Source: a virus
Direction: 5' to 3' (one strand)
Length of the DNA stretch: 64,000 bases
UHGV virus genome: UHGV-1358930
The notes beneath the pieces were generated by a model, which was not told the DNA's origin, searched no databases, and was given only the letters and a program-made list of their open reading frames with translations. Made by a program: the position numbers and the translations under genes. Below, piece by piece: positions 2,657-64,000 of this stretch (its first letter is position 1; every line of letters begins with the position of its first letter).

Positions 2657-2663
2657 TGTTCAA

Positions 2664-8058: not shown

Positions 8059-8712
8059 ATGGATGTAGTAAAGAATATGCGTGGAAGTATTTGGTGGTTG
8101 AAAGACGAATTTGATAAATACAAAGGTGAAAGAGGCATCCTTAGAGGTTCTAGGCCGGTTATCATTATGAATAATCCAGCAAACGAATATAATGATTGCA
8201 CTATTACATATTTGCCGATTTCTAAGTGCGAATCTCATGCTGGTGATGATAGTCGAATTCAAATGTTTTATCAGGTACCTATTCAGATTCCTGGTAATAA
8301 ATCTAGTTATGTATGTTGTAATAGCATCATGACTACAACTACTTCTCATCTTGGAGAATATGTTGGGCAGATTTCAGAAGATAAGCTAAAAGAAGTCGAA
8401 GCCGAATTGATGCGTTATCTTTCTCTTTCTGAAAAAGTCGTTACACGAGAAGTAATAAAAGAGGTTAGGGATACAGACAAGGCAACGAAAACAACTTCTT
8501 TTTCTATTACAGACGCTGTCGCTTGTCCAGAACTCAAAAAAGTATATTCTAGTTGTACTGAAATGGCTAAAGATCTTAACTGCTCTCCTGCGTCTATCAG
8601 CAAGTCGAGTAGATGGGGAAGTAAGCTGATGCACAAATACACAGTGTTTAAAGTAGCAACGGCTGCTGGAAACTATGTTTGCAAAACTAAGGAGGAAATC
8701 AAAAATGAGTGA
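8059..8712 (+). CDS. Hypothetical protein
   Basis: 217-aa ORF. Confidence 0.4.
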   Translation: MDVVKNMRGSIWWLKDEFDKYKGERGILRGSRPVIIMNNPANEYNDCTITYLPISKCESHAGDDSRIQMFYQVPIQIPGNKSSYVCCNSIMTTTTSHLGEYVGQISEDKLKEVEAELMRYLSLSEKVVTREVIKEVRDTDKATKTTSFSITDAVACPELKKVYSSCTEMAKDLNCSPASISKSSRWGSKLMHKYTVFKVATAAGNYVCKTKEEIKNE

Positions 8713-10499: not shown

Positions 10500-11740
10500 C
10501 TCCCGTATCAATTGATGAAATTCTGAAATATTGAAATATTTAATAAACTGAGTAATGTGTAGAATATTGTGAAAACTGAAAATATGAACCTTTGTTAATC
10601 TTACATGTAGAGGTATGTTTAAATCTACAAATATATTATATGAACTTAGTTAGCAGAAGTCAATGTAAATTAGCCAATTCATATCAAAATTTTTATTGAA
10701 ATCAGCAGATTTTCAGAATTTTGAAGTTTTACACAATTTGATCTAACTATAAAGCTAGATAGGAAATAACTATAACAAGCTGTTTGGCATATAGATATGT
10801 TATAGCGAGACTTGAATAGCACTATAAGATAAATAACACGAACTTATCGCAATATCCGAAATTTAGAAATATTGAAGATTTGTGTATGGATCATCTTAAA
10901 CATTGAAATCTACAAAATCTACAATATCTGAAATTTTGAGATATTGTAAATTTGAATACTTTAACATACGTATATTGAATGTGCTTAAAAGATTAAATTT
11001 TCGTAAATTATTTTATTTATAGTTAAAATTTATGATTTGTTAATAGTTATAAACAGTATAAAAGTGATCTATTATTATAAGTGTCACCGTCTAGGTATAT
11101 ATGTATTCAATATATCATATAGTAGATATGTAAGTATTATATATCAAGCACATATCAAAATACTATAGCAAACTAAGTTATATAGGTAATCCCTATATCA
11201 AGGTGTAATCTATATACAGTAATCCCTCACAGCGTAAGTTGAGCATAAACAATGAAATTGAGACATGTAGATATATTATCGCTATATATCTAAACAAATT
11301 GATATAGTATTGACATATAGAGAATCACGTGATATTATAGCAAAACTTCATGGTTATGAAACTTCTATGTAACAAAATCAGTCAGAAACCACCAAAATTT
11401 GAATATTTCAGAATATTGAAATTTCAATAATATGTAAATTTTACAATCTTTCAGAATCGTGAATATTTCAAAATATGAAAATTTCAACTTTCCGCTAAAA
11501 TCACCAGAATTTAGTAAAATTGAAAGAATATGAAAATTTGATGCCTTCAATCTTTCAGAATCTGGTCATTTGGCCGCTTTAATATTATTAAAGAAATTAA
11601 AGTAATTAAAGTTATAATGTTATTAAAGTTATTTTAAAGGAATTAGCCAATTAAAGTAAAAAAGAATTAAAGTAAAAACTCGCAAGCTCGTTTTTACTTT
11701 TTGGTTTGTAATCTGAGAACATAAATTCTGTCAGTAGATA
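10500..11740. repeat. AT-rich non-coding region with dispersed short direct repeats (gaaatattgaaatatt; tttcagaat; gaatatttca(g/a)aat; atgaaaatttcaa; >=6 copies of ATTAAAGT at 11590-11690)
   Basis: No credible ORFs; multiple repeated 8-15-mers; candidate early-promoter/origin/host-takeover region. Confidence 0.5.
11310..11338 (+). promoter_or_regulatory. Consensus sigma-A promoter TTGACA-17-TATTAT
   Basis: ttgaca(11310-15) + 17-nt spacer + tattat(11333-38). Confidence 0.55.
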
Positions 11741-12008
11741 CCTCTATGCTGAAACGCATTGACGTACTTTTATGCGATCATGCGAAACACATAGACGTGG
11801 GCGTGACCTAAACACTACAGTTGATACTGCACATGGTCGGTTCAAACTACGTAGTAGTTGAATTTTTGAGTAATTTGGTGGCGCTTGCGTTGAATATCTG
11901 TCTTCGTCTCGTGTATGCAACGCACGTATGAGTCTCATATGCAAAAAAAATATTCGCCAGCGCATTGGCAAATATCTGTTAGATTTCAAAAATTTATAAA
12001 ATTCGGGG

Positions 12009-12037
12009 TTGACTTTTTGAAGCAGATACCTTATACT
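12009..12037 (+). promoter_or_regulatory. Near-consensus sigma-A promoter TTGACT-17-TATACT
   Basis: ttgact(12009-14) + 17 nt + tatact(12032-37). Confidence 0.55.
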
Positions 12038-12039
12038 AT

Positions 12040-12490
12040 GGGTGTAGGTTCACCTAACAAGTTAAAACTCAGTTGAGCGTAGCACCTCGACTACTTACTA
12101 CTTCTGCTAGGCAGCTTCATGATAGAGTCAGCGCAAGATCGTCGAAGCAGGTAACTTGTTAGAAACCGAATCGTTAATGTACTTAGCAAACCGCCACCAG
12201 GTAACTCCTATCGAGCTTGAAATTGAATAATCTCAAGATTGGTCAACAAAATCTTCTTTCAGAAGAGGCGCCAGTTTTGTACTCATCTTCTACTCACTTT
12301 TCGATAGGGGTGCTGGTAGTTGCTAAGCTATCAGTTTAGGTTTGCTAAAGTAGAAATAATCATCTACGTGAATTAGCCGGTATCTAGAGGTCGCTACTCG
12401 ACGGTACGACGTTGTAGCATGCGTAGAAGCTGCAGCTGATGTGATGAGTGCAAAACTGACGCCTTTCTTTTGTTTATTTAGTAGTTCGGA
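12040..12490 (+). ncRNA. Candidate structured non-coding RNA: ~450 nt GC-richer ORF-less segment immediately downstream of a strong promoter
   Basis: No ORF >=60 aa on + strand; local GC clearly above flanks; contains AATCGTTAATGTA motif copy (12169). Confidence 0.25.
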
Positions 12491-18262: not shown

Positions 18263-18420
18263 ATCACACCAGATTTGAAAATAAACATTAAATACCTTTA
18301 TTTTCTTAATCTGTTCCTCTTTCAACGACCTTGCTTGACAAGTCAAGTCTTACTAGATCTCCAGAGGCGTTAATTTCCGCTTGTGCAGCGGTATTTGTTA
18401 TTTTTAGGAGAAAGCTATTC
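18263..18420 (-). ncRNA. Putative TnpB omega-RNA (reRNA) scaffold at tnpB 3' end/right end of element
   Basis: Conserved (>90% identical) in second copy at 63718-63880 while flanks diverge; position matches known omega-RNA location. Confidence 0.4.
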
Positions 18421-19540
18421 TCAAGCCCTCGTTCAATATATTCTTTGATGCATTGATATCTCTATCATGTGTTGTTTGACAATTAGGACAAGTCCAATTT
18501 CTAACTTCAAGATTTTTGACTTCTGGATTTTTGAATCCGCAACAGCTACAAGTTTGAGAAGACGGAAAGAAGGCGTCTATTTTGACAAGTTGTTTTCCAT
18601 ACCAGCTGCACTTGTAAGTCAATAGTTCAACGAATTTTGACCAGCTTGCGTCTGAAATTGCTCTTGCTAGTTTATGATTCTTGACCATATTTTTGACTTT
18701 CAAGTCTTCAACACAGATTATGTCGTGGTTTTTGACAAATTCTGTTGACAGCTTGTGCAAGAAATCATTTCGTTGATTTGAAACTTTCTCAAATTGTTTA
18801 GCAAGTCTGATTCTTGATTTGTTTCTGTTATTAGATCCTTTTTGCTTCTTCGAGAGCTGTCTTTGAAGTCTTCTTAACTTCTTAGTAGACTTTGAAAGGT
18901 ATTTCGGATTTTTGATCTTTTCACCGTCTGAAGTTATTGCGAAATCTTTGATGCCGAGGTCAATTCCTACAACAGATCCAGTTTTGTCAAACTCTTCAAT
19001 TTCAACATCTTTGCAACAGATACTTGCAAAATATTTTCCTGAAGCTGTTTTTGAGATGGTTGCCGAAAGCGGAGTTCCTTTGACATTTAAATTTCCTTTG
19101 AATTTAACCCATTTCAATTTAGGCAAGAAGATCTTGTTATCTAAACAATGAAATTGTGCAGGTGTGGAGTATGTAGCCTTATATGACTGTCTACTTGAAA
19201 GTTTCTTCTTAAATTTAGGATAACCTGGTTGCTTTCCATTCTTTACGTTTCTAAAGAAGTTTTGATACGCAGTATCAAGATCTCTAAGAGACGATTGCAA
19301 AGCCATTGCTTCAGGTTCTTTCAACCATGAATATTCGTCAAGCTTCTTGAGCTTTGTTAAATCTGCAGAATTTTGATTATATGTATTTGACTTTCTTGCC
19401 TCTTCATAATCTTTGATGGATTTAGCAAGATAGTAGTTGTAGACAAATCTGCAGCAGCCAAAGGTTTTTGCAATTTGCTCAATCTGCTGCTTGTTCGGAT
19501 ATATCCGTATTTTATAAGCTTTCAGAATCATTTTGGTCAT
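18404..19540 (-). CDS. tnpB: TnpB (OrfB) RNA-guided nuclease-like transposase accessory protein, IS605/IS607 family
   Basis: '[11 protein letters not shown]...FGCCRFVYN' N-term; C-terminal Zn finger 'CSCCGF...[18 protein letters not shown]'. Confidence 0.8.
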
Positions 19541-38544: not shown

Positions 38545-39323
38545 TTTTTCAGAGTCAGAAGTCTCAGCTTACTCAGTTATCAGAATTCTCTAAGTCCAAA
38601 TGTCATAGCATTTTGATTCATGGGCCTAAAGGTTCAGGAAAGACATATTTGGCCAAACAATACGCAGATATGCTCCGTGTACCAAACTTTCAAATAATCA
38701 AATGCGATGTGGCGACTATACGAGAAACAATAGATAGTTGCATCTCTCTGAAGTCTGATGTTGTCTTATGCTTAGAAAATCTGGATACTGCTGTTCTTGT
38801 TGCGTCTTACACAATATTGAAATTTTTGGAAGAACCTCTGCCAAATGTATATATTGTAGTAACTTGCCGAAATATCGAACAAGTTCCAGATACTATACTG
38901 AGCAGATCTGTGGTAGTAACATGTAGCTGTCCTACCGATTCAGATATTGAACAGTACGCAGAATCCGAAAACTTAGCTAAGTTCTCTACAATAAAACATA
39001 CAGACATTTGGAGAGCTGTCAAGTCTTTTTCCGATGCTAAGTTAGTACTTGGTATGTCTTCAGATCAGATTAACTATTTCTGCCAGATAGATTCGTTGAT
39101 GAAGTTCCAAGACTCTGTGTCTAATATCGTCTGGGCGCTAGGACATTACTCAGATAATACTGAAACGCCTATCCAATTTGTGCTACAATACATCATGACG
39201 AAAACATCTTCTAAAACAATAAAGCAAGCGGCGATGGCTTGTATCCGAGATCTAGCTCTAAGTAAAGTGTCAGCACACGCTGCTTTATCTCGGTTTGCAT
39301 TTGAGGCCAAATATGTCGAATAA
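38541..39323 (+). CDS. Clamp-loader delta'-like AAA+ protein
   Basis: 'HGPKGSGKTYLA' P-loop; 260 aa. Confidence 0.4.
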   Translation: MIFQSQKSQLTQLSEFSKSKCHSILIHGPKGSGKTYLAKQYADMLRVPNFQIIKCDVATIRETIDSCISLKSDVVLCLENLDTAVLVASYTILKFLEEPLPNVYIVVTCRNIEQVPDTILSRSVVVTCSCPTDSDIEQYAESENLAKFSTIKHTDIWRAVKSFSDAKLVLGMSSDQINYFCQIDSLMKFQDSVSNIVWALGHYSDNTETPIQFVLQYIMTKTSSKTIKQAAMACIRDLALSKVSAHAALSRFAFEAKYVE

Positions 39324-39816
39324 TATTCAATACAAGTCAATAAATGGTTCAGACTACTACGCATGCACCGATGGACATATTTATTTCAAATATGGACTAA
39401 CTGGTGGATATAGCAAGCTATATGAACGACTCCATCCTGATGGTTATCTCGAAGTAGCTAAACCATTTTACGCTAAAGGTAGAAACTATGTTCACAGAGT
39501 GATTGCAATTACATTTTTAGGGTATCCTAAAGATTATTATGATAAACACTACGTAGTAGATCACATTGACGGAAATCGTCTAAACAACAAACTAGATAAT
39601 TTGGAGTGGATAACGCAAGCTGAAAATGTTAGACGCGCTAAATCACGAAGACATAAGAACATGAGTGTGATGTGTATCGAAGATGACAAACAGTTCGATA
39701 CAATCTCAAAAGCTGCTAACTACTATAATATCCGATACTACAGTATCTACGGATCGTGTATCACTGGAAGACCAATTCACGGAAAGACTTTCAGGTTTGT
39801 TTCAAAAATAATTTGA
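39295..39816 (+). CDS. Free-standing HNH homing endonuclease (NUMOD4 + HNH_3)
   Basis: 'YVVDHIDGNRLNNKLDNLEWITQAENV' HNH. Confidence 0.7.
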   Translation: MHLRPNMSNNIQYKSINGSDYYACTDGHIYFKYGLTGGYSKLYERLHPDGYLEVAKPFYAKGRNYVHRVIAITFLGYPKDYYDKHYVVDHIDGNRLNNKLDNLEWITQAENVRRAKSRRHKNMSVMCIEDDKQFDTISKAANYYNIRYYSIYGSCITGRPIHGKTFRFVSKII

Positions 39817-51637: not shown

Positions 51638-51904
51638 TTGATATATTATAAGAATACATCATCTAGATCACTTACATTTTACAATGTAACTTTTGGTCCA
51701 GGGGACATCAAACCTGTTCCGGATTACATAAATAGATCATGCATGATTAGATGCGATGAACCCAAGCAAACTTCTCCTAAGCCTAAGGCCGCAGCTGAAA
51801 AGCATGCATCTACAAAATCATCTGCCGTAGTAGATGTAAAGTTCAAATCTGATAAACAAATTGAGCAAGGAGGAAATGCTAATGGCTCAGATAAATATTT
51901 CTGA
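51638..51904 (+). CDS. Hypothetical small protein (TTG start)
   Basis: ORF. Confidence 0.3.
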   Translation: MIYYKNTSSRSLTFYNVTFGPGDIKPVPDYINRSCMIRCDEPKQTSPKPKAAAEKHASTKSSAVVDVKFKSDKQIEQGGNANGSDKYF

Positions 51905-53750
51905 AATTAGTCAAAATTATAGCTATAACATTGGTACAAACACATACTGCTGTGTAGCAATGCCTATTACAGCGTGTTGGGGACCTGGGTACGTTGATCC
52001 AACGTCAGCAGGAATTACTGAAGACGAACTCATGGATGAGCTACGCTGGGAGAGATTCAACGCAACTCAGCAAGGTCTAGAAAGCTTTGTATCTACTTAC
52101 AGAGGCCCTGCGTCACTGTATAGATCTGCGAAAGATTATTCATATCAAATGGCAATGACGCTTCTTACTGCTGGATATGACGTACTTATCTGTCGTGTGT
52201 GCCCGGGTACATCTGCTCAAGGCGAGCTTAAAATTCAGGACGAGAACAAGCTCACTATCAAGGCCAAGTACGCTGGCACGTTTGGTAACAATCTTCGTTG
52301 CACATTCAAAAAGCTCAACTCTATATTCCTAGTAGATGGAAAAGCGCAGAGAGTGAACTATTGGAACTGCATTGTATATGTGCTAGATTCTTCTGGTACA
52401 AAGACAGCAGTTGAGAATCTAAGCTTTGTATTTGAGTCTAGGAATTCTAACGACTCACTATATCATATTTCTGAAATTGACTCTAATTTCATTACATTTG
52501 CCGGATACGATGAACTCAAAGATTCATTGACACTTGACGGATCTGTATCTATCGACCTTGCAAACGGTTCAGACGTTGCTAACCCTAAAACCGCACAAGA
52601 AATGATTACAGCTGCAACAGAGTTAGCAAAAACTCGTTATAGCAAAGTATATACCGATATAAGTAATGTTTCTTATCTGACAAAGCTGTCTAGCTTGAAC
52701 ATTTCTGATATAAATAAAGCTGCTGCTATTCAATATAGAGAATGGTGCTGTACTGCAGCATATTCCGTATTTGAAAAGCTCAAGGATAAGTTGTCATACA
52801 ACTACAATAGAGTAATTGTTCCAGGTTGGGATGATCAGGATTTCTCCGCTGTAGTACCTGATTACGTATACAATGATGTAGATACAAACTTCGTGCTATC
52901 TCCTCTCCATATCCGATTGATGGATGTCGCATACAACAGCCGTTGTGGCACCGCATACATTGATATCCCGAAGAGTCTTCCTAGATCTCGTGTATGGAAC
53001 GAAGACGATAGTAAGGAAGGATATGCACAGAAGCTCGCTAGATATGTACCTACAAACAACGCATACGACCTAAACGCAAGCTTGTATACTTCACATTCTG
53101 CTTTATTTGCTCCTTGGGGACATTATACATATGTCGGAACTTCCAAGCAGAACGTCGCATCTCCTTCGTTCATGGCTTTGATGATTGAAAGAGCAATGAT
53201 TCTAAATCAGGCAAGCCAGTATGAATGGGCACTACCTACAACAAGAAAACATACACTTAAGATCGGCAAGCTCGATTATAGCGTAACAAAGCATCTGCTT
53301 GATGACTGGCAGGGTGAAGAAGGCGTAGGTGTAAACGTAATCACAGATATTCCAGATATGGGTATGAGTCTGTGGGGAAATAGCACATTGTTCGAAGTTC
53401 CTGTTGGAACCTATCAAGCTCTTGCAAATCTATCAACTCGTAAGCTAATGAACGCTGTTGAAGATCAGGCATACAGATGCGGAATTAACATCACATTCCA
53501 GTACAACAACGAGCAAGCATATAGTAGTTTCTACGCTGGTATGACCCCACTGCTGGACACAATGAAAAATATCGGTGCTATCAACGACTACTACATGGTC
53601 ATGTCAGCTGATATCAACGGCACCGATAGGGTGCGCTTGAATAGTATTCTAGGTACTCTGTATTTAACAGTTTCAGGCGTGGTAAACACGATCAACTTGG
53701 ATCTTATCGCACTTCCTAGTACGGTGAATCTAGACGACTACAGGGCATAA
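51861..53750 (+). CDS. Putative virion structural protein, tail-sheath-like (629 aa)
   Basis: Size; N-terminal 'NIGTNTY..ACWGPGYVDP' loosely resembles sheath N-termini (T4 gp18 'GTAALAGKFQWGPAFQI'); followed by terminator. Confidence 0.3.
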   Translation: MSKEEMLMAQINISEISQNYSYNIGTNTYCCVAMPITACWGPGYVDPTSAGITEDELMDELRWERFNATQQGLESFVSTYRGPASLYRSAKDYSYQMAMTLLTAGYDVLICRVCPGTSAQGELKIQDENKLTIKAKYAGTFGNNLRCTFKKLNSIFLVDGKAQRVNYWNCIVYVLDSSGTKTAVENLSFVFESRNSNDSLYHISEIDSNFITFAGYDELKDSLTLDGSVSIDLANGSDVANPKTAQEMITAATELAKTRYSKVYTDISNVSYLTKLSSLNISDINKAAAIQYREWCCTAAYSVFEKLKDKLSYNYNRVIVPGWDDQDFSAVVPDYVYNDVDTNFVLSPLHIRLMDVAYNSRCGTAYIDIPKSLPRSRVWNEDDSKEGYAQKLARYVPTNNAYDLNASLYTSHSALFAPWGHYTYVGTSKQNVASPSFMALMIERAMILNQASQYEWALPTTRKHTLKIGKLDYSVTKHLLDDWQGEEGVGVNVITDIPDMGMSLWGNSTLFEVPVGTYQALANLSTRKLMNAVEDQAYRCGINITFQYNNEQAYSSFYAGMTPLLDTMKNIGAINDYYMVMSADINGTDRVRLNSILGTLYLTVSGVVNTINLDLIALPSTVNLDDYRA

Positions 53751-53822: not shown

Positions 53823-55958
53823 ATGTCAACTAAGATATGTAAGATATGCGGTAAATCATTTGAGTCTAAGTCATCTAGACGTTCTGTTTGCTATGAGGAT
53901 CATTATCATCCTTGTCCTGTTTGTGGTAAACTAACTATAGGAAATGATATGCAACATTTGAATTCTTGCTGCTCAATCGAGTGTTCTAGGAAGAAAGCGT
54001 CTGATACTACGCATGAAACATACGATGAATGGCCTTCCAATTCTAGTAGTGCGAAGCAAAAGAGAGCAGAAACTAATGTGCAGAAATATGGAGTCGATAA
54101 TCCTTCTAAGCTACCTGATGTGAAATCGCAGATATCTAGTAGTTTGAAAGCTACGTGGCAAACTCAAAAAGATAACATACTATCCAAAACTGAACAAACT
54201 TGCTTAGACAAGTACGGTCAAACACACTACATGAAATCTGATGAAGGCAAACAACACGTATCTGATGTATTTACTGAAAAGTATGGAGTTAAAACCAGCT
54301 TGCTGTCCGATATTGTGAGAGATAAGATAGAGAAAACCAACCTGGAAAAATATGGATCTGCGAATCCACTTTCATCTGCAGATATACGAGACAAAGTAAA
54401 GCAGACCAATATGCTTCGATACGGATATCAATACTCTGCTAGTTCACCAGAAATTAGAGAAAAGATGAAATCTACTATGGTGAAACGATACGGTGTGAAA
54501 TATCCGCTTCAGTCTGATGTGATATTGAAACGTGCCAAGGAAACATTCTCAAGTCATATGGAGTCAGAATCGTTTAGGCAGCAGAGGCAAGAGAATACAG
54601 AAGCTACTAACATGGCTCGATATGGGACTAAATCTGCAATGTCGAACATCGAAATTCAAGCACGCATTCAGTTCACTAATTTATCTCGATATGGTGTAGC
54701 AAGCTATACAGCTTCTGACGATTTCAAACAAAAACGCCTGAAAACTTTCAAGATAAAATATGGATCAGATAATCCGATGAAGTCTGAAGCAGTCAAACAA
54801 CGATTATCGGAAACGATGAAATCTAGATACGGTGTTCAACATGCAAGTCAACTGAACATGCCTGATATATCTAAAATTGACGAGTTGATTAAGTTTAGGT
54901 CAGATCCTGCTCAATACATATCTTCATTACCCGAAAGCGAAAGAACAGAATCAATCATAGCTGATAAACTTGGTGTCACTTCAAGCGCTGTTTCTAACTA
55001 TGTTGTACAAGATAATCTCCATCATCTAGTAAGTTATAGCAAAAGCACCGTGGAAGATGAAGTTGCTAATTTTTTGAGTCAGAACAATGTCAGTTTCCTT
55101 CGTAACTGTAGATCTGTCATATCTCCGTATGAACTCGATTTTTATTTACCTGATAGACAGTTAGCTATTGAATGCAATCCGACGGTAACGCATAACTCTT
55201 CATTTCATGATCCGTGGAATGGCAATGCGAAATCCCCTTCATACCACAAAATGAAAACAGATATGTGCGAGAATGACGGCATATTTCTATTTCATATTTT
55301 TGGCTATGAATGGACGTATAGAAAAAATATAATATTATCTATGTTGTCTTCCTTACTACATAGATCCAGTCGAAAAATCTACGCCAGAAACACATATGTG
55401 GCTGAAATTGATCCAGCAGAATGCGCTGAATTTTTAGAATCTAATCATAGACAAGGCGGAAGATTGTCAGCAAGTATTCGATTAGGACTGAGATCTAAGG
55501 ACACCAATGAGTTAGTATCTGTAATGACATTCAACAAAATTAGAAATACTATCGGATATACAGGTCAAGCAGGTGTAGAACTATCTAGATTCTGTTCTTC
55601 ACTCAACACGTCAGTTGTAGGAGGAGCCAGTAAGCTTTTTACACATTATCTGAACAACATACATTCCGATGAATTAGGTAAAATTATTTCGTTTTCTGAT
55701 AGAGCACATACACGAGGTAACTTATATTCAAAGTTAGGATTTGTACCTGTTAATGTATCAAATCCAGGATACGTCTGGGTAAGTATGGTAGATGATTCAT
55801 ATTACAATAGAGTATCTTGTCAGAAACGTAATTTACAGAAGCTGTTTAACGATACTCGTATAGACGTTGATAATCAAACAGAACGTCAGATAATGGAATC
55901 TCATGGCTATGCTCAGGTGTTTGATTCTGGAACAATCAGATGGGAATACCTTAACTGA
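53823..55958 (+). CDS. Modular protein A: N-terminal Cys-rich Zn-ribbon, ~9 tandem NUMOD3-like 'RYG..P..S.E(V/I)..K...T' repeats, Vsr/DUF559-like PD-(D/E)xK domain, C-terminal GNAT-like domain
   Basis: 'CKICGK...CPVCGK...CCSIEC'; repeats KYGVDNPSKLPDVKSQ..; 'LDFYLPDRQLAIECNPTVTHN'; 'VVGGASKLF...LYSKLGFV'. Confidence 0.55.
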   Translation: MSTKICKICGKSFESKSSRRSVCYEDHYHPCPVCGKLTIGNDMQHLNSCCSIECSRKKASDTTHETYDEWPSNSSSAKQKRAETNVQKYGVDNPSKLPDVKSQISSSLKATWQTQKDNILSKTEQTCLDKYGQTHYMKSDEGKQHVSDVFTEKYGVKTSLLSDIVRDKIEKTNLEKYGSANPLSSADIRDKVKQTNMLRYGYQYSASSPEIREKMKSTMVKRYGVKYPLQSDVILKRAKETFSSHMESESFRQQRQENTEATNMARYGTKSAMSNIEIQARIQFTNLSRYGVASYTASDDFKQKRLKTFKIKYGSDNPMKSEAVKQRLSETMKSRYGVQHASQLNMPDISKIDELIKFRSDPAQYISSLPESERTESIIADKLGVTSSAVSNYVVQDNLHHLVSYSKSTVEDEVANFLSQNNVSFLRNCRSVISPYELDFYLPDRQLAIECNPTVTHNSSFHDPWNGNAKSPSYHKMKTDMCENDGIFLFHIFGYEWTYRKNIILSMLSSLLHRSSRKIYARNTYVAEIDPAECAEFLESNHRQGGRLSASIRLGLRSKDTNELVSVMTFNKIRNTIGYTGQAGVELSRFCSSLNTSVVGGASKLFTHYLNNIHSDELGKIISFSDRAHTRGNLYSKLGFVPVNVSNPGYVWVSMVDDSYYNRVSCQKRNLQKLFNDTRIDVDNQTERQIMESHGYAQVFDSGTIRWEYLN

Positions 55959-56011
55959 GTAAATCAGAATCGTTAAATAATTTGATAAGTCACATACAAG
56001 GAGAATACAAA

Positions 56012-56392
56012 ATGCTAGACGTTGCAACGCTTCAAGGATTTCTGTCACCTTCTGGAGAATTTTATGAATGTGATACATACGGTCATTGTGAATTAGCAAA
56101 GCAGATTATCAAGTCAATGAATCGTTACTCTGTAGATGCAATCAAAACAATGTGTCATGAGAATGTGCTGTTAAAGCATGGATGGGTATGTGTACGAGCA
56201 AGAGATGTCTATAAATCTGCGTTTGATGAAAATAAAAATTACTTGCCTATATCAAATGAGCAGCAATCATGGTTCGAAGCCAACTACAACAACTTAACAA
56301 AATATCAGAATTCAGACATATACGAAATAGTAAAAGATTTCGGAGATGCTCGCCATTATAGAAAAGCTATAAAATCTGCGGAGGTGACGTAA
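56012..56392 (+). CDS. Hypothetical protein
   Basis: SD AAGGAG; ORF 55982..56392. Confidence 0.4.
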   Translation: MLDVATLQGFLSPSGEFYECDTYGHCELAKQIIKSMNRYSVDAIKTMCHENVLLKHGWVCVRARDVYKSAFDENKNYLPISNEQQSWFEANYNNLTKYQNSDIYEIVKDFGDARHYRKAIKSAEVT

Positions 56393-56393
56393 A

Positions 56394-56594
56394 TTGAGTA
56401 TCTACGATTTTGAGTTGAGGAAATCGGATGTAGCGTCTGTGATGAAGGAGATAATGGACGAAGAATACAGACAGCATGCTAGAACCTGTGCGCAAATGAC
56501 GAATGTGGAAAGGTTAAATAACATCCAATATTTATCGGGTATGAAATACATGGTGACTGAAACTTTAGTACGATTGGAGCATAAACATGCTTGA
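56394..56594 (+). CDS. Hypothetical small protein
   Basis: ORF. Confidence 0.3.
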   Translation: MSIYDFELRKSDVASVMKEIMDEEYRQHARTCAQMTNVERLNNIQYLSGMKYMVTETLVRLEHKHA

Positions 56595-56635
56595 GTGCGC
56601 TATTCTATCAATAATTGGAGTTATCTCAATAGTGT

Positions 56636-56935
56636 GTGTCTCGTACATCGTTGAATATATCTTACATTGGTTACGAAACAATAACAATGCTTACAGACCA
56701 ATTCAGATTCGAAAATCTGATGAGATATTGGAGAAAAGATGGCATGACTGTATTTGATTTGCTTGTCTACAGCAAGAATGTTTATGATGTAGACTTTATA
56801 GACACTGAAGGAGCCATTTTAGATAAAATGAGCATTGCAAAAGCGATTGCAAGTAAATATTCAAATATGTCAGTAATTGAATACACGCCTTCTCTACTCT
56901 GTAATGGATCAATTGAGCTAATCATATGCGTGTAA
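56636..56935 (+). CDS. Hypothetical small protein
   Basis: ORF. Confidence 0.3.
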   Translation: MSRTSLNISYIGYETITMLTDQFRFENLMRYWRKDGMTVFDLLVYSKNVYDVDFIDTEGAILDKMSIAKAIASKYSNMSVIEYTPSLLCNGSIELIICV

Positions 56936-56944
56936 GGAGAATGT

Positions 56945-57154
56945 ATGAAAATTCCTAACTATGTACTAGATCTGATCGTAAAAAGACAGAGATACGTTGA
57001 AAAAGCCTTGGATGCAGCTTACTCTCTTCAAGAATGGCTTGACAAGAATGAAATATACGTTGAAGGATGTGATGAGATTGGAGGAACAGAAATGTTTTTA
57101 AGTCCAAATGAATCTGCACGCAGAGTTATGAATGCAATCTTAGAGAAGGAGTAA
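56945..57154 (+). CDS. Hypothetical small protein
   Basis: SD AAGGAG. Confidence 0.35.
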   Translation: MKIPNYVLDLIVKRQRYVEKALDAAYSLQEWLDKNEIYVEGCDEIGGTEMFLSPNESARRVMNAILEKE

Positions 57155-57238
57155 TTAGATTGAATTTCATGCACAGTTTTAGCTATCCTCCATGTAACAG
57201 ATATTTCTACGAGGATACATTGAGCAAGGAGGAAGTAA

Positions 57239-57535
57239 TTGATGATTGAAATTGAGTCGCTCATAGTAAACACATTCAAATGTTTTGGAATAGAATTCAA
57301 GCAAATAAATTATAATTCATTTGAAGACGTAATTGAAATCAAAGTTACTGTTCCCAAAGATAGCGAAATTAAACATTCAAACGGAAACAGCATGGCTGGA
57401 AAATTTCTAGCTAAATTATTACGAGATAAAATTAGAGCACGTGGAGCTAATTGCAGAGTAGCATACAAAGAAAGAGACGAAACTTGGAATGAATTCAAAT
57501 ACGAGAAGATGCGTAAGGAGGTTTACGGTGTTTGA
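57239..57535 (+). CDS. Hypothetical small protein
   Basis: SD AAGGAGG. Confidence 0.35.
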   Translation: MMIEIESLIVNTFKCFGIEFKQINYNSFEDVIEIKVTVPKDSEIKHSNGNSMAGKFLAKLLRDKIRARGANCRVAYKERDETWNEFKYEKMRKEVYGV

Positions 57536-57712
57536 ATATAGATATTGTTTCTTTGAAGCAGAAAGTTTTAAGGTTGAGGAATTAGTTGATTCCGAAACAA
57601 ATGAATCAGAATTTGCATTTTACGCTAATAACAAAATACTTTTTATCACAGACAAATACGGGATAAGAGAGATTTGGAATCAGCTAGATTACTTGCTAAG
57701 AGAGGTTGAATA

Positions 57713-58081
57713 ATGGGATTATTTGATAAGAAAGGAACAGTCGTATTTGATTTCGATGGAGTAATCCATTCTTATGCATCAGGTTGGCAAGGTGAAGGTG
57801 TAGCAAATGATCCTATTGTTCCAGGAATGGCGGAGGAGCTAAAAAGAATATATAATGATGGATACAAAGTAGTTGTCGTATCAGCCAGGTGCACTTCAAG
57901 AGAAGGAATGGACTGCGTAAATGATTATCTATTAAATCACGGTGTTCTTAAGTACGTAGACCTGATTACTGCAAAGAAACCACCTGCAATATGCTACATT
58001 GATGACAGAGCTATTTGTTTTGATGGTCATCCTGAAGGGCTTCTTGAGAAGATTCAAAATTTCAAACCATGGAACAAATAA
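57713..58081 (+). CDS. HAD-superfamily phosphatase (5'(3')-deoxyribonucleotidase-like)
   Basis: 'VVFDFDGVIHSY' DxDGV motif; 'KVVVVSAR'. Confidence 0.5.
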   Translation: MGLFDKKGTVVFDFDGVIHSYASGWQGEGVANDPIVPGMAEELKRIYNDGYKVVVVSARCTSREGMDCVNDYLLNHGVLKYVDLITAKKPPAICYIDDRAICFDGHPEGLLEKIQNFKPWNK

Positions 58082-58156
58082 AGGCGTCAGAAATATTCTG
58101 ACGCTTTCTATGCGCAACCTATATTATCATCAGGTATACGAATAGTAGGATGATAT

Positions 58157-58591
58157 TTGAAACGATATGTAAAATGCGACAGCTCAAACTTATCTAACAC
58201 TAAATTTATTCTCAGCTCTGGTTCTGTAGATTCATATGAAGATGAGTATGCAGACGATCTGGAATCTGAAATGACATTTGCTGACTGGTATGATTCCGAT
58301 ATCTGCATGGATGACCAAAACAAATTTATAGATATATTAGAATCTAAAGTTCGTTCTGAATATGATGTATCTGAATGGTTTGATGAACCTTCAGTTCAAG
58401 GGCTACGTGGAGACGACTATATTCTAATAACTTTAAGTTCCGGAGATATATATTCATATAGTTTCGATTTCACAGAAGAGCTGGAAACAATCTATACAGA
58501 GGGTCCTGAAGCTGCCGCAAACTACTACTTCAAACAAATAAAAGAGGGAATCGATTCAGGATCAGCATTGGTACCAGATACTACTCTCTAA
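58157..58591 (+). CDS. Hypothetical acidic protein
   Basis: ORF. Confidence 0.35.
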   Translation: MKRYVKCDSSNLSNTKFILSSGSVDSYEDEYADDLESEMTFADWYDSDICMDDQNKFIDILESKVRSEYDVSEWFDEPSVQGLRGDDYILITLSSGDIYSYSFDFTEELETIYTEGPEAAANYYFKQIKEGIDSGSALVPDTTL

Positions 58592-58609
58592 TCAAATCAT
58601 ATAAACAAA

Positions 58610-58646
58610 AGAGCAGGCAACGATTGTCTGCTCTGTTTTGCTGTTT
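58610..58646. terminator. Bidirectional terminator between convergent genes (agagcag...ctgctct + GTTTTGCTGTTT)
   Basis: 7-bp stem, T-rich 3'. Confidence 0.5.
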
Positions 58647-60303
58647 ACCTGAACTCGTATACAAGCTGACCACAATCATATACAGGAAGCCATCCATGTT
58701 CAATCATGAGCTCATCGTTTGATACACCTTTACCAAAATTAGTTCCAAACAGCTGGTCATAACCTCTTTGTCGAAGAAGATTGGCAGTTATTTTATTCTT
58801 TCCTTTTGACCAAACCTCTTGAGGAGGAGTTGTTCTAACTAACGTCATTCCAATCTTTTCATAAACATTTCCTAAAAACTTAGACCTATCACAGTAAGAT
58901 ATTATACTAGATACTCCAAAGTTTTCAGTAGCAAATTTGAAAAGCTTAGACGCACCTCCTACAACATTGTATCCAGGAAGAGAACATAGCCTAAGTAACT
59001 CTACATCATGCGTCTTGTCGTATCTGGATTTACCAAATGTCATAACCTGATACAGTACATTATCTTTAACTAGACCTAAGCAAAGCAGCTGCCCTCTACA
59101 AGTTCCTTGAAAATGATACTTTGACAAAAATTCGTCTGCAACTTTCGTATTAAGCTTGTATATCGATAAATTCCTGGCAAACACAGATTTTCTTTTACAG
59201 AGAGACTGAATTATTTTATCTGAATCATCCCAGTCAAATATATGAATACATCTGTATCCAGATTCTTCAGCAATCCGAGATTTATCTCTATGATAGCTAA
59301 TTTTAACACCAGGTCCTCCCCATGGATTTTTCAAAGCATTATGAGTGTAAGATGGATCAATCTCAATCAATGTCTTTTCATCATTTAACGCAATGTCGAA
59401 GAATTTTCCATCTAGATAAAATTCAAAGCTACTATCTATTCCAGATGCTAAAAGCTTGTCATGAAATGTTACAGCTATCTTTGAAATCTTACTTATACTC
59501 TCTTGAGCTGAAGGTACAAGACATCCATACGGAACTCCATACTTCTGTATACAACTTTCTTTTGCTTTCTTCATCAATTCTGATGGATGAGACGGATCAT
59601 CTACACCATATCTAGATAAAAAAGTTGATTTTGCTTTATCATCAATCTCTTTGGGCCAAAATTCACCGTAGTTCTCTATTCTTGTTTTTATCGCAGACAT
59701 ACACACATCTTTATCTTTCATAGCGTTAGAGAACCCATATTTATCTAAACATGCTTCCTCCATTTTCTTCTTAAACAATTCAATCTTCATTGGATTGCTA
59801 TTTCCATATTTCGACGACATCGTCAACTCAATCTTTTTTCTTAATTCTTCAGATTGCATAGATGTAGGAGCGCCATATCGTTCTGTCATCGTTTGCTTTA
59901 TTTTATCACGAACCTCAGAAGATCCTAAAGCCCAATCTGAACCAAATTTATCCCTATTCGTTTTCATTGCTTTTTGTTTTATCTCATCGGATTTAAGCGG
60001 AGAATCTACACCATATTTATCTAGCATTGCTTGCTTGTGATGCATCTGAACGTCTTTGTTTTGCATCGGATGTTCACATCCATATTTGATAATGTTGTTA
60101 CGTCGGGTTTGTTCCTTCTTACATTCTCTGCTACACGGTTCTATTTTTCTAGTTGTGTTCCATATCATCGGCTTACCGCATATAGGACAGGTAGATACAT
60201 GAGATTTAGAACAAATACGTGACGAAGGCGCATCTGGTAAAAATAACTCTCCACATATTGCACATGGTTTCAACTTTTTAGGCTTGCTGTATCTTGGATT
60301 CAT
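58645..60303 (-). CDS. Modular protein B (paralog of A): Zn-ribbon, ~9 NUMOD3-like RYG repeats, Vsr-like domain, GNAT-like C-terminus
   Basis: 'CAICGELF...CPICGKPM...CSRECKKE'; 'LIEIDPSYTHN'; 'VVGGASKLF...VYEKIGMT' collinear with protein A. Confidence 0.55.
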   Translation of the reverse strand: MNPRYSKPKKLKPCAICGELFLPDAPSSRICSKSHVSTCPICGKPMIWNTTRKIEPCSRECKKEQTRRNNIIKYGCEHPMQNKDVQMHHKQAMLDKYGVDSPLKSDEIKQKAMKTNRDKFGSDWALGSSEVRDKIKQTMTERYGAPTSMQSEELRKKIELTMSSKYGNSNPMKIELFKKKMEEACLDKYGFSNAMKDKDVCMSAIKTRIENYGEFWPKEIDDKAKSTFLSRYGVDDPSHPSELMKKAKESCIQKYGVPYGCLVPSAQESISKISKIAVTFHDKLLASGIDSSFEFYLDGKFFDIALNDEKTLIEIDPSYTHNALKNPWGGPGVKISYHRDKSRIAEESGYRCIHIFDWDDSDKIIQSLCKRKSVFARNLSIYKLNTKVADEFLSKYHFQGTCRGQLLCLGLVKDNVLYQVMTFGKSRYDKTHDVELLRLCSLPGYNVVGGASKLFKFATENFGVSSIISYCDRSKFLGNVYEKIGMTLVRTTPPQEVWSKGKNKITANLLRQRGYDQLFGTNFGKGVSNDELMIEHGWLPVYDCGQLVYEFR

Positions 60304-60420
60304 ACCATAAACTTCTCCTTCAATGTTGTTGTTTAATTATAAAGTAGATTCTGTGATTTGTCAATAGTTTAGCACCTTTTATTTTTCTAGACAGTCAAAA
60401 AAAATATAGTTAACATTGAG

Positions 60421-60984
60421 GTGTATTATATGTTTAAGCCTTTGAAGCTAGGTACAAACCACATGCTTGGGCAAGATTCATACGTGCCATTGACAACTAA
60501 TAACTTTGAAATTAGAATATATGGAATGGACGGAAGTGCTCCAAGCGAATTTGCAGACCTCTTAACATTATCAACAGATGAAGTAGGAGAAATTCAAGAA
60601 GACCAGGATTCAATCACAGTACATTATGGAAACGGCCTAATCAAATTCCCGAGTAAGGTTGATTACGCAGATGTAGATTGGACATTAAATTGCTACTGCA
60701 GTCCTAATGTACTTGAGGCTCTTAGAGAATGGAGACGTCAAGTCTACGATCCCGATTCAGAAAGGATGGGACTGCCGTCTGAATACATGAGACAGGTATA
60801 TTTCATAAAATATGATGGTCAGGGAAACGTAAGAGACGTCATTAGATGCCCGGGAACATGGATCAAAGGCCTCCGCAACGGTACCCACACCCAGTCCGGA
60901 GGAGATGTCGTGAAGGTCCAAACGACGCTAGTTATTTCTAAAGCAATTTATCTTAGACCTTCTGAATTCAATCAAGGAAAGTAA
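60421..60984 (+). CDS. Hypothetical protein (187 aa)
   Basis: ORF. Confidence 0.4.
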   Translation: MYYMFKPLKLGTNHMLGQDSYVPLTTNNFEIRIYGMDGSAPSEFADLLTLSTDEVGEIQEDQDSITVHYGNGLIKFPSKVDYADVDWTLNCYCSPNVLEALREWRRQVYDPDSERMGLPSEYMRQVYFIKYDGQGNVRDVIRCPGTWIKGLRNGTHTQSGGDVVKVQTTLVISKAIYLRPSEFNQGK

Positions 60985-61065
60985 TCGGCAATTTACCAAA
61001 TAAGAGCAACCCTTCTAAAGTTATATTACATCAATCGTTAATATAATTGTAGGAGGGTTAATTTT

Positions 61066-62817
61066 ATGGCCATAAAAACATGTAAAGCGTGTGGGAAGTT
61101 GTTTGAAGGTACTGGAACTGCTTCCTATTGTTCTGGTCCTCATTATGCTATATGTGAAGTTTGCGGGAAACAATTTGAGTGTGACCCTAGAATACATAAC
61201 AGATGCTGTTCTGCAAAATGTAAAGCGGAGTTGAGAAAGCAAACTATACGAAAAACCAAGAGAGTTTGCAAGCTATGCGGAAAGGTTTTTACCTCAAATT
61301 CGAATACTCAGCAATACTGTAATAATACTCATTATACTAAATGTGTTATATGCGGAAAGGAGTTTGCAATTCCTAAAGGACTGGAATATGATCCGCCGAG
61401 AGCTTGTTCTATAGAATGTTCTAGTAAACTCAGAAAACAAACATGTTTAGATAAATATGGAGTAGACGTAGCTTCTAAATCACCTGAAGTAAGACAAAAA
61501 CTTAGAGAAGCTTCTAAGCAGTCTGAAGATGTTCGACAGAATACCTGTTTGATTCGATATGGAGTTAAGAATGCATCAATGGCTCCAAGTGTACGGCAGA
61601 AAATATCCGATAGAATTAGATCAGACGAATGCGTTGCACAGACCAAGCAAACTATGAATGCTCGATACGGCGTAGATTATGCTATGCAAAATCATGAGCT
61701 ATACACTAAGCAGATAAATGGAATGACTGCTGTATATGCGTCAGATGGAACTAAGTTAGATAGTCACTATGAACTTTATGTATACGAGTATCTAAAACGA
61801 AACAACATAGACTTTGAGTATCAAGTTCCAATTCAATACACATACAATGAAGCTACGCATGTTACCTATGTTGATTTTAAGATCAACGGTCTGTATTTTG
61901 AGGTCAAAGGAGCACATTTACTGCAAGGGTGTTTTGATTACAGCGGTGTCCCAATTTCTGCTAAATTAGATGTATACAGAACTCATGACGTGATATTGAT
62001 AACTGACAGCATGTGTAAGGATATGTTTGAGAAATCTAATGGGCTAAAATATCCTAGCAAGCGTGAAAATCGACTAATTGGTGTAGATATTGATCTATTC
62101 AGGAATCCAGAGTTTCCCTATCGCAAAGATAGACCTAAATGTTTCTATGATGTTCGGGTTGATGGTAAAGCATCTGCACATGACGCATTCTTCAATGAAA
62201 ATATAAGATGGAACATGATTGTAAATCGAATACAGTATATGGGCGGATTTATTGATTCAAATCAAATACTAACTGCACTGAATGTTTCAAGAACTTGTAA
62301 GCAGCCATCTTGGTTCAGTCAATCGTTTGCAGAGCATATAATATCTACTTACTGTACTTCTAATATAATTGTTGATCCGTTTGCAGGTTGGGGAGCTAGA
62401 TCAGACGCAGCTAAGAAGCTTGGTAAAACATATATAGGATGCGATCTAAATCCAGAACTTGTCAAGTGGCATATTGACTGCGGAAGAACTAATATCTCGT
62501 TAGGAAATGCGGTAGATTTTAAGTTCTCAAATACATGTTCGGTATTTATCTGTCCTCCCTACTCAGATCCAAGCACGGGCAGATGTTTTGAAGATTACAA
62601 TTTTGAAGGATTTGATGCATCTGCTAAATCCATGAGTCAATGCGATTGGCTTAAATTAGTCATGAGAAACGTACCTAATGCAAATGAATATGTAATGGTA
62701 TGCAAAATTGTAGACCCAGGATTTGAAAAATACGTAGTAGAGACGAAAGAAAACAAAAGTCATTTTGGTACAAACTATGAATATGTTTTGCGTGTTCCTA
62801 AGAGAATATACTTGTAA
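61066..62817 (+). CDS. Modular protein C (paralog): Zn-ribbon, 3-4 RYG repeats, Vsr-like domain, C-terminal amino-methyltransferase-like domain (motif I 'DPFAGWG', motif IV 'CPPY')
   Basis: 'CKACGK...CEVCGK...CCSAKCKAE'; 'YVDFKINGLYFEVKGAH'; 'IIVDPFAGWGARS...FICPPYSD'. Confidence 0.55.
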   Translation: MAIKTCKACGKLFEGTGTASYCSGPHYAICEVCGKQFECDPRIHNRCCSAKCKAELRKQTIRKTKRVCKLCGKVFTSNSNTQQYCNNTHYTKCVICGKEFAIPKGLEYDPPRACSIECSSKLRKQTCLDKYGVDVASKSPEVRQKLREASKQSEDVRQNTCLIRYGVKNASMAPSVRQKISDRIRSDECVAQTKQTMNARYGVDYAMQNHELYTKQINGMTAVYASDGTKLDSHYELYVYEYLKRNNIDFEYQVPIQYTYNEATHVTYVDFKINGLYFEVKGAHLLQGCFDYSGVPISAKLDVYRTHDVILITDSMCKDMFEKSNGLKYPSKRENRLIGVDIDLFRNPEFPYRKDRPKCFYDVRVDGKASAHDAFFNENIRWNMIVNRIQYMGGFIDSNQILTALNVSRTCKQPSWFSQSFAEHIISTYCTSNIIVDPFAGWGARSDAAKKLGKTYIGCDLNPELVKWHIDCGRTNISLGNAVDFKFSNTCSVFICPPYSDPSTGRCFEDYNFEGFDASAKSMSQCDWLKLVMRNVPNANEYVMVCKIVDPGFEKYVVETKENKSHFGTNYEYVLRVPKRIYL

Positions 62818-63717: not shown

Positions 63718-64000
63718 CAATCACGTCAGATTTGAAAATAAATATTAAATATATTTATTTTCTTAACCTGTTCCTCTTTCAACGACCTTGCTTGACAAGT
63801 CAAGTCTTACTAGGTCTCCAGAGGCGTTAATTTCCACTTGTGCAGCGGTATTTGTTATTTTTTTTTAGGCAAAAGCTATTCTCAAGCCTTCGTTCAATAT
63901 ATTCGTTGCTGCATTGATATCTCTATCATGTTTTGTTTGACAATTAGGACAAGTCCAATTTCTGACTTCAAGATTTTTGACTTCTGGATTTTTGAATCCA
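63718..64000 (-). mobile_element. Second copy of the TnpB-element right end (tnpB 3' part + omega-RNA region), truncated by window end
   Basis: ~90% identical to 18263..18545 over ~280 nt. Confidence 0.65.
63865..64000 (-). CDS. tnpB: tnpB (partial, C-terminal Zn-finger region; continues beyond window)
   Basis: Collinear with 18404.. region of copy 1. Confidence 0.6.

Follow-up and report, generated by a model that had tools for sequence, protein, structure and literature searches.

Probable homing endonuclease genes, Hef-type and related, that join a predicted nuclease to a predicted base-modifying domain at the tail sheath/tube region of a phage genome

The 64,000-nucleotide virus sequence UHGV-1358930 (the window, by which we mean the whole stretch) carries three large modular genes around its tail sheath and tail tube genes, referred to here as p1, p2 and p3. 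Each begins with a Cys-rich segment and an array of short repeats, continues into a predicted nuclease, and ends in a domain that resembles enzymes acting on exocyclic amines, which is a Mom-like GNAT domain in p1 and p2 and a methyltransferase in p3. The question raised by this locus is what such combinations are doing beside the tail genes of a phage. An earlier note on this DNA had seen in them sequence-targeted DNA hypermodification enzymes, and the three open reading frames (ORFs) on which it built are all present at the positions and on the strands that it gave (Table 1). The best overall explanation, which we regard as likely, is a different one: these are homing endonuclease genes in which a nuclease and a modification domain are combined in a single chain. 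Phage genomes are rich in homing endonuclease genes.

Family membership and the shared N-terminal module

The three genes stand as autonomous intergenic cassettes beside two genes that are essential and conserved, those of tail sheath and tail tube: p1 lies 70 bp 3' of the sheath gene, p2 lies 118 bp upstream of the tube gene in divergent orientation, and p3 lies 82 bp downstream of the tube gene. By BLAST, p1 and p2 align as homologs from end to end (29% identity, E 9e-50), and the similarity of p3 to p1 and p2 is confined to its first ~230 residues in both BLAST and hhalign comparisons. By these measures the set is made up of two full-length paralogs and one protein, p3, with only the presumed DNA-binding module in common. 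The single architecture first ascribed to all three proteins thus holds for p1 and p2 and, in p3, ends with the N-terminal module. No further copies of these genes were found elsewhere in the window, and among 50,697 phage records a near-identity DNA search with the locus gave no match.

At the protein level the relatives of p1 and p2 are numerous. Both match PHROG 3339, annotated "homing endonuclease", from end to end (E 1.3e-118 for p1 and 2.3e-86 for p2), and both match PHROG 559 (E 1.8e-73 for p1), members of which are intron-encoded in the terminase genes of Bastillevirinae. Searches with tblastn place p1/p2 homologs in 429 phage genomes, the hosts of which include Vibrio, Campylobacter, Klebsiella, Acinetobacter, Salmonella, Escherichia, Dickeya and others, and the homologs are annotated as Hef, F-LimVIII, "homing endonuclease EDxHD" or hypothetical. 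The tblastn alignments to genes with Hef, F-LimVIII or "EDxHD" annotations cover 84–99% of p1; for the Hef-like proteins the coverage is 91–95% and the identity 25–31%. A further homolog, gp145 of phage AR9, sits in a group I intron of the virion RNA polymerase beta' gene. The work on I-Bth0305I (PMC3239194) assigned Hef-type enzymes to the EDxHD family, a Vsr-like one. Hef itself, for "homing endonuclease-like function", is an endonuclease of phage U5 that is cited as experimentally active; in the portion of the literature accessible to us, its gene is described as standing in place of mobE, and the enzyme as cutting near its own locus.

These observations allow us to assign p1 and p2 with high confidence to the Hef-type branch of the EDxHD (Vsr-like) family, as free-standing genes for homing endonucleases. 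This family was named in 2005–2011, and the combination that had been taken for undescribed is, for p1 and p2, a known one, found in the 429 genomes above. As a fallback, the earlier note had offered a new homing-nuclease family, which was right as to kind and, for p1 and p2, wrong as to novelty. The third gene, p3, is a related modular gene with the same DNA-binding chassis and a canonical PD-(D/E)xK nuclease.

The closest known counterparts of p1 and p2 are Hef of phage U5, F-LimIII, F-LimVII, F-LimVIII and F-LimX of the Dickeya phage LIMEstone1, and the proteins named "Hef" in the Campylobacter phages CP220 and IBB_35. They fall in the same PHROG, show nearly whole-length homology, are free-standing beside conserved genes and, like p1 and p2, also carry a Mom-like domain. 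F-LimVIII even lies between the tail sheath and tail tube genes on the opposite strand, which is the position and strand of p2. They differ from p1 and p2 in their low identity and in the numbers of repeat and zinc (Zn) ribbon units; the sequence of U5 Hef itself stands outside this comparison.

The Cys-rich N-termini previously remarked on are present in all three proteins. In p1, the Cys/His positions are C6, C9, C23 and H27/H29, followed by C31, C34, C49/50 and C54, and the unit pattern (CxxC...C...H, CPxC...CCxxxC) occurs once in p1, once in p2 and twice in p3; a treble-clef match is seen in the homolog P0074. The repeats that follow recur every 23 residues without deviation, with (K/R)YG as the anchor, and number about 10 in p1, 9 in p2 and 3 in p3. 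A variable array of ~23-residue units is borne out. The arrays match the Pfam family DUF7487 well beyond chance (E = 2.8e-44 for p1, 7.3e-33 for p2 and 1.6e-9 for p3), in place of the NUMOD3 repeats that they had been said to resemble, for which the Pfam search of all three arrays gave no match at E ≤ 1. Like NUMOD3 and I-TevI-type repeats, they are short helical modules in tandem that bear an S-x-E-x-x-x-K signature and are flexibly attached to a nuclease; they differ in being N-terminal, in being much longer (up to 10 units) and in their Pfam assignment. The concept of modular DNA-binding repeats in phage homing endonucleases was set out together with I-Bth0305I (PMC3239194), and we presume that the Zn-ribbon pair and the DUF7487 array form one long modular module for binding DNA.

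Nuclease and modification domains

Sequence searches of the PDB, by phmmer with each protein and with a hidden Markov model (HMM) profile of the C-terminal half, yielded nothing useful for p1 and p2, and fold comparison was therefore needed. The AlphaFold2 model of the C-terminal half of p1 (predicted local distance difference test, pLDDT, 92; predicted template modelling score, pTM, 0.88) packs the nuclease and GNAT domains as a single rigid unit. Structure prediction with fold comparison assigns p1 and p2 a predicted Vsr-like nuclease fold, in agreement with the profile searches and with the domain that the earlier note had recognized. In an alignment of the last 317 residues of p1 with the corresponding region of p2 and with 28 homologs from metagenomes (30 sequences), the conserved residues of the p1 nuclease are E411, D439, E450, N452, H457, N458, Y474-H475-K478, H491 and E496. 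The spacing of E411, D439, N452 and H457 matches that of E170, D196, N208 and H213 in I-Bth0305I (PDB 3R3P), the prototype of the EDxHD family; p2 has S, D, D and H at these four positions. The two kinds of protein are also alike in having an N-terminal modular DNA-binding region followed by the nuclease. I-Bth0305I differs in being intron-encoded and only 266 amino acids (aa) long, with NUMOD and helix-turn-helix (HTH) motifs, and in ending with its nuclease domain, whereas p1 and p2 have Zn ribbons, DUF7487 repeats and an additional Mom-like domain of ~195 aa. Neither phmmer nor the profile finds a sequence-level match between I-Bth0305I and p1 or p2.

The additional domain is predicted to adopt a GNAT fold that is closest to Mom, the enzyme of phage Mu that moves glycine from Gly-tRNA(Gly) onto adenine N6 in double-stranded DNA, a chemistry established in 2026. 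A GNAT-like domain in two of the three proteins had been proposed from the start, and structure prediction, fold searches and profile searches agree on it. A profile built from 30 genuine Mom proteins aligns with the p1/p2 family profile over 140 columns (hhalign, E 8.3e-5), and searches by hhalign and hmmsearch against the lone Mu Mom sequence are insignificant (E 0.41). In addition, two close homologs score above the Pfam cutoff for the Mom family PF25680, and residues 369–507 of p2 match PHROG 1384, "Mom-like DNA modification protein" (E 8.6e-8). Five residues for which mutation abolishes or strongly reduces Mom activity, H58, R111, S124, D149 and Y159, have equivalents in p1 (Table 1) that are each kept in 27–30 of the 30 sequences and are all present in p2. 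The numbering is that of PMC13219725, and the GenBank numbering used in PMC7261163 is 10 lower. R111 is specific to Mom rather than general to GNAT proteins, and S124 and Y159 contact the cofactor. The p1 domain also has a two-helix insertion before its last strands, where Mom (PF25680; PDB 8BV8) has an essential HTH-like insertion. Judged from these alignments and residues, the GNAT domain of p1 and p2 is specifically Mom-like. Mom is a stand-alone dimeric anti-restriction enzyme, and in p1 and p2 the domain forms the C-terminal end of an endonuclease. The earlier suggestion of Mom-like adenine modification is strengthened as regards the domain and set aside as regards its setting, which is a mobile endonuclease and not a dedicated modification enzyme. 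The Mom-like domain occurs in at least 366 records of cultured phages, nearly always within Hef-type homing endonuclease genes, and some Acinetobacter phage annotations of the homologs read "putative nuclease/acetyltransferase". The papers on Hef-type and EDxHD enzymes that we found in the searchable literature do not mention it.

The AlphaFold2 model of p3 residues 211–583 (pLDDT 90.5) comprises a nuclease module, a conserved helical linker and a methyltransferase. The nuclease is modelled with alpha-beta-beta-beta-alpha-beta topology and bears the signature E236...D270...E279-x-K281 (E26, D60, E69 and K71 in model numbering), the residues of which are kept in 26–32 of 37 sequences; methyltransferase matches dominate the fold search, in which a match to the nuclease fold was not isolated. 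Aligned by hhalign, the p3 and p1 nucleases show no relation (probability 1%). The Vsr motif DF...IE(C/I)(N/D)P..THN is absent from p3, and BLAST similarity does not extend past residue ~230. What had been called a Vsr/DUF559-like module in p3 is instead a canonical PD-(D/E)xK nuclease.

The C-terminus of p3 is predicted to have the class-I Rossmann methyltransferase fold with its motif I, (D/E)xFxGxG, and the closest structures in the fold search act on exocyclic amines, so that the amino-methyltransferase-like domain proposed for one of the proteins from its DPFAGWG and CPPY motifs is found in p3. Across 37 homologs, no variation is seen in motif I (DPFAGWG), in the acidic D460 (D250 in model numbering) or in the PPY of motif IV. 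This fourth motif reads CPPY, and not (D/N/S)PP(Y/F/W), in 37 of 37 homologs as well as in proteins that combine a Vsr-like nuclease with a methyltransferase; we found no description of the CPPY variant in the searchable literature. The p3-type core has 201 metagenomic relatives, and the 50,697 phage records contain no full-length counterpart of p3. Other p3-type members have HTH modules in place of the DUF7487 module. p3 itself is a new architectural variant.

Turnover at the tail genes and the pairing of cutting with modification

We gathered 61 related viral loci (designated by L numbers) with the tail tube protein as the anchor. In L014, L020, L025, L030 and L055 the tail sheath and tube genes are adjacent, 20–75 bp apart, and the other 56 loci vary in occupancy. 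p1 is missing at its site in these five and in L001, L005 and L006, and other loci have a p1-like gene after the sheath, a p2-like minus-strand gene before the tube, or both. The site 3' of the tube is likewise variable: it may be empty or hold either a p3-type gene or one of Hef type, the latter in either orientation, and the 2–5 copies of these genes per locus are divergent. In the nearest relative, L052, with ~95% DNA identity in the flanks, p3 is a deleted, frameshifted remnant in which one repeat is joined to the methyltransferase and the Zn ribbons and nuclease are lost; directly after it stands an intact 609-aa Hef-type gene that is not in the window. At the p2 site, L001 and similar loci have a 231-aa remnant with one repeat and a degraded Mom-like domain and without a nuclease. 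This pattern of occupancy strongly supports a cycle of invasion, decay and re-invasion by free-standing homing endonuclease genes. Since the sites are empty, swapped or decayed in relatives, it also argues against a core DNA-hypermodification pathway. In the mechanism that we propose, the enzyme would cut the sheath/tube region of a relative without the gene during co-infection, and recombinational repair of the cut would copy the gene with its flanks into the genome of that relative.

Between p1 and p2 lies a block (57219–58137, comprising o57239, o57489 and a HAD gene) that is 89–92% identical in DNA to L001, L003, L007 and L049, the sheath/tube flanks being only 70–80% identical to the same loci. 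The block, which stands beside the p2 cassette, represents an unusually recent exchange and is possibly a co-conversion tract or a separate mobile cassette. The HAD gene (57713–58081) was considered as a part of the system and rejected, as it is kept in relatives with or without these genes.

The combinations of domains were surveyed with domain HMMs run on 5,522 ORFs of the 61 loci and the window. This revealed 57 proteins with a Vsr-like nuclease and a Mom-like domain, 4 with a PD-(D/E)xK nuclease and a methyltransferase, 3 with a Vsr-like nuclease and a CPPY methyltransferase, and 1 with a PD-(D/E)xK nuclease and no methyltransferase. About 12 ORFs have the Mom-like domain only, and none has the Vsr-like nuclease only. 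A shared DNA-binding chassis carries two different nucleases, and behind these, two unrelated amine-modifying folds take each other's place. Pairwise identity averages 0.52 in the Mom-like domain and 0.50 in the Vsr-like nuclease; the methyltransferase has a mean of 0.64, compared with 0.39 in the PD-(D/E)xK nuclease. Between p1 and p2, identity is 35% in the Mom-like domain against 27% in the nuclease. By these figures the modification domains are constrained at least as much as the nucleases, and we therefore read the modifying activity as important to the element. Residue conservation makes both the Mom-like and the methyltransferase domains look functional.

Some of the surveyed proteins depart from the usual layouts. 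The hybrids of Zn ribbons, DUF7487 repeats, a DUF559/Vsr-like nuclease and a CPPY methyltransferase (Table 1) have the nuclease motif YDxYxPxYKxLxDCDGxYxHS and a CPPY methyltransferase of a second subtype (IVDPFSGFSGR...LTCPPY), which makes them a third nuclease-modification combination. In L027, a 603-aa relative (10643–12451) with ~5 Zn-ribbon units and many repeats ends after its PD-(D/E)xK nuclease, and this is the only nuclease-only architecture seen. A stand-alone family of ~210–230 aa has one DUF7487 repeat and the Mom-like domain, with the equivalents of H58, R111 and Y159 kept. In these Mom-only ORFs, S124 is replaced by D and D149 by N, and they are probably not active enzymes. They form a divergent subfamily, yet one that recurs in conserved form from locus to locus, and may for this reason represent a domesticated protein, such as a site-binding immunity or regulatory protein, and not mere debris.

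What the modification domain does for its element is a separate matter from the identity of the genes. The simplest model, a possible one that we hold tentatively, its support being indirect, is self-protection, in which the domain, steered by the same DNA-binding array as the nuclease, would mark the cognate site of the carrier against cutting. We consider it rather unlikely that the genes go as far as to be single-chain homing elements of restriction–modification (R-M) type, in which one array would bring the nuclease and a Mom-type or CPPY enzyme to the same site, so that the carrier's own genome would be immunized and naive genomes cut. In single-chain R-M enzymes (Type IIG/IIC, such as MmeI and BcgI), a nuclease and a base-modifying domain share one DNA-recognition module. 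The likeness to these enzymes lies in the union of nuclease and modifier in one chain and, for p3, in the order of PD-(D/E)xK nuclease and amino-methyltransferase. The differences are that an R-M-type target-recognition domain is lacking, recognition presumably being left to the Zn ribbons and DUF7487 repeats, that motif IV is CPPY, and that the genes act as homing elements in phage genomes. To our knowledge, no R-M system uses a Mom-type GNAT as its modifying domain. We found no discussion of Mom-like or methyltransferase domains in homing endonucleases in the searchable literature.

Most of this finding is ordinary, p1 and p2 being new members of a known homing endonuclease family. The part that is not is the role of a nucleobase-modifying domain in homing elements, which has not been described before and can now be tested; it is a concrete lead, short of a demonstrated new kind of system. 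With the chemistry of Mom known since 2026, the role of the Mom domain in a homing endonuclease is directly testable in cultured phages (LIMEstone1, CBA120-like phages, RaK2 and AR9). The interchange of domains suggests that selfish elements functionally couple the cutting of DNA to the modification of its bases; such a coupling would alter the view of self-protection in free-standing homing endonucleases, and the proteins could supply modular scaffolds that target long DNA sites for site-specific DNA modification. Should the reading as R-M-type elements be true, these would be the first homing endonucleases to carry their own chemical immunity and the first enzymes to "momylate" DNA at a targeted site.

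Several points weigh against such a pairing of active nuclease and active modifier. Cleavage, homing, modification and target site of p1, p2 and p3 are predictions, and the experimental status of Hef rests, in the sources as far as they were accessible, on secondary citations. In the nuclease of p1, a longer loop intervenes before the fifth EDxHD residue (D222 in I-Bth0305I), for which the invariant H475/K478 or E496 are candidates. Neither p1 nor p2 matches the Pfam Mom family PF25680 at E ≤ 1, although homologs of ~50% identity score 31.3 and 28.3 bits, above the cutoff of 27.1; two other homologs score 26.9 and 25.3. The essential R151 of Mom falls in a gap beside a variable position (R in 13 of the 30 sequences, including p1 and p2), and W48 of the Mom dimer interface aligns to a residue that is not conserved. 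The non-canonical motif IV leaves the activity and substrate of the p3 methyltransferase uncertain. The asymmetry of an R-M-like pair, with modification-only survivors and no nuclease-only ones, is weakly apparent in our survey, and both the probable inactivity of the Mom-only ORFs and the one PD-(D/E)xK protein without a methyltransferase count against it. Finally, I-Bth0305I cuts without a C-terminal domain of this kind, so that the domain is dispensable for nuclease function.

Some of these same points would suit otherwise ordinary homing endonucleases whose recruited C-terminal domains are pseudo-enzymes, retained as structural elements (for dimerization, DNA clamping or base flipping) or as regulators that bind a ligand such as tRNA or S-adenosylmethionine (SAM). 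Besides the departures at R151, W48 and motif IV, the rigid packing of nuclease and GNAT is in keeping with this, as is the conservation of the stand-alone Mom-like relatives despite substitution at two catalytic positions; Mom is a tight dimer, and the double-strand break made by I-Bth0305I requires dimerization (PMC3239194). Set against it are the five (near-)invariant residues important for Mom activity, R111, S124 and Y159 among them, and the invariance of the SAM-binding motif I, of D250 and of the PPY of motif IV in the methyltransferase. It is also hard to explain structurally why two unrelated folds with only exocyclic-amine chemistry in common should swap position. We therefore find pseudo-enzymes a doubtful explanation. 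A role as weapons against competing phages or the host, in which the nuclease would destroy foreign DNA and the modifier would guard the phage's own DNA globally, as a phage-borne R-M system without gene conversion, seems improbable to us. Such a role would account for the joining of nuclease and modification domain in one architecture, and T-even homing endonucleases cause marker exclusion (PMC2988022). Insertion at a hotspot with replacement and decay is, however, the product of gene conversion by homing, and intron-encoded homologs exist; this alternative overlaps with homing genes of the nuclease-plus-modification kind and differs only in whether copying follows cutting.

The proposal that the genes are dedicated to sequence-targeted hypermodification, with the nuclease as secondary, would have them add acyl or methyl groups to 7-aminomethyl-7-deazaguanine in DNA (dPreQ1) or momylate adenine genome-wide against host restriction. 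In its favour, the transferase folds are genuine and seem intact, Mom serves phage Mu against restriction, the structures nearest to the methyltransferase belong to enzymes for exocyclic amines, and the phage encodes QueC, a QueE-like enzyme and FolE. These genes, at 1.9–5.0 kb, confirm that it has the 7-deazaguanine precursor pathway; the claim that it installs 7-aminomethyl-7-deazaguanine is verified only in this part. p1–p3 lie ~50 kb from the que genes, however, and close relatives do not keep them, several sites being empty and p3 having decayed in L052. The 2–5 divergent copies per locus do not fit a dedicated pathway either. The family is found in phages that differ widely in host and DNA chemistry and, in AR9, inside an intron; it is annotated as homing endonucleases, with one case reported experimentally in sources accessible in part; and a long repeat array implies few long target sites, not genome-wide marking. 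We reject a link of p1–p3 to the 7-deazaguanine pathway on this distribution, and consider the hypermodification reading of the earlier note very improbable.

Other features of the window

Table 1. Positions of the three genes, their domains and associated features. Coordinates are those of the window unless a locus is named; aa, amino acids.
Feature	Position	Strand	Length	Basis or remarks
p1, Hef-type (EDxHD) free-standing homing endonuclease gene	53823..55958	+	711 aa	ORF, PHROG 3339, PHROG 559
p1 Cys/His-rich Zn-ribbon (treble-clef-like) pair	53823..53996	+		Cys/His positions; weak zf-C2HC/C2H2 Pfam matches
p1 repeat array, ~10 tandem 23-aa DUF7487 units, presumed DNA-binding	54069..54878	+		Spacing and Pfam
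p1 predicted Vsr-like (EDxHD-type) nuclease domain	55026..55358	+		
p1 Mom-like GNAT domain	55374..55955	+		H542, R589, S603, D626, Y635 = Mom H58, R111, S124, D149, Y159
p2, second Hef-type homing endonuclease gene	58645..60303	-	552 aa	Homology to p1, PHROG 3339, PHROG 1384
p2 Mom-like domain	about 58648-59172	-		
p2 predicted Vsr-like nuclease	about 59188-59478	-		
p2 repeat array, 9 units	about 59491-60102	-		Zn-ribbon pair precedes
Predicted sigma-70 consensus promoter (TTGACA-17-TATAAT)	60336..60364	-		Directly upstream of p2; consensus match only
p3, modular homing-endonuclease-like gene	61066..62817	+	583 aa	ORF; first ~230 aa like p1/p2
p3 two Zn-ribbon units	61066-61425	+		
p3 3 DUF7487 repeats	61438-61716	+		
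p3 predicted PD-(D/E)xK nuclease module	61729..62031	+		E236, D270, E279, K281; AlphaFold2 topology and motif conservation
p3 predicted class-I SAM-dependent exocyclic-amine methyltransferase domain	62278..62805	+		Motif I DPFAGWG, D460, motif IV C496-P-P-Y499
Tail sheath gene	51861..53750	+		PHROG 23 and 279; conserved flank of insertion hotspot, probable target region
Tail tube gene	60421..60984	+		PHROG 4542; conserved flank of insertion hotspot, probable target region
QueC	1913-2656			
Radical-SAM QueE-like protein	3717-4358			
GTP cyclohydrolase I (FolE)	4355-4951			
Stand-alone Mom-like ORF, L001	9233-9928	-		
Stand-alone Mom-like ORF, L013	7789-8415			
Stand-alone Mom-like ORF, L017	4331-4981			
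Stand-alone Mom-like ORF, L044	3900-4547			
Stand-alone Mom-like ORFs, L031, L033-35, L039				
Hybrid protein, Zn ribbons + DUF7487 + DUF559/Vsr-like nuclease + CPPY methyltransferase, L044	10600-12426			
Hybrid protein, same domains, L017	10555-12324			
Hybrid protein, same domains, L047	12767-14779			

The putative promoter upstream of p2 is the sole 12/12 match to the sigma-70 consensus within 53.6–63.2 kb, which we count among the signs that p2 is mobile, and hairpins lie between the cassettes.

The genome is heavily colonized by mobile nucleases. A homing-endonuclease-like gene with HNH_3 and NUMOD4 domains (2601–3260, + strand) lies between queC and the QueE-like gene, and another with HNH_3 (39295–39816, + strand) follows the clamp-loader genes. 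An IS605-type TnpB gene (OrfB_IS605, with Cas12f-like TNB and HTH domains) is located at 18404–19540 on the minus strand. Positions 63720–64000 repeat 18263–18544, so that a second copy of the TnpB element begins at the end of the window, and in L052 a TnpB element (1–736) stands upstream of the sheath gene at a site that is empty in the window. With this second copy and the insertion in L052, the element seems to have been active in the phage lineage until recently.

The whole window is without identified tRNA genes. The segment 10001–12000 has a G+C content of 0.29, against about 0.36–0.37 elsewhere, and is without an ORF of at least 150 aa. An ORF at 8059–8712 (+ strand) encodes a 217-aa protein with an N-terminal PemK/MazF-like toxin domain (E 9e-10).

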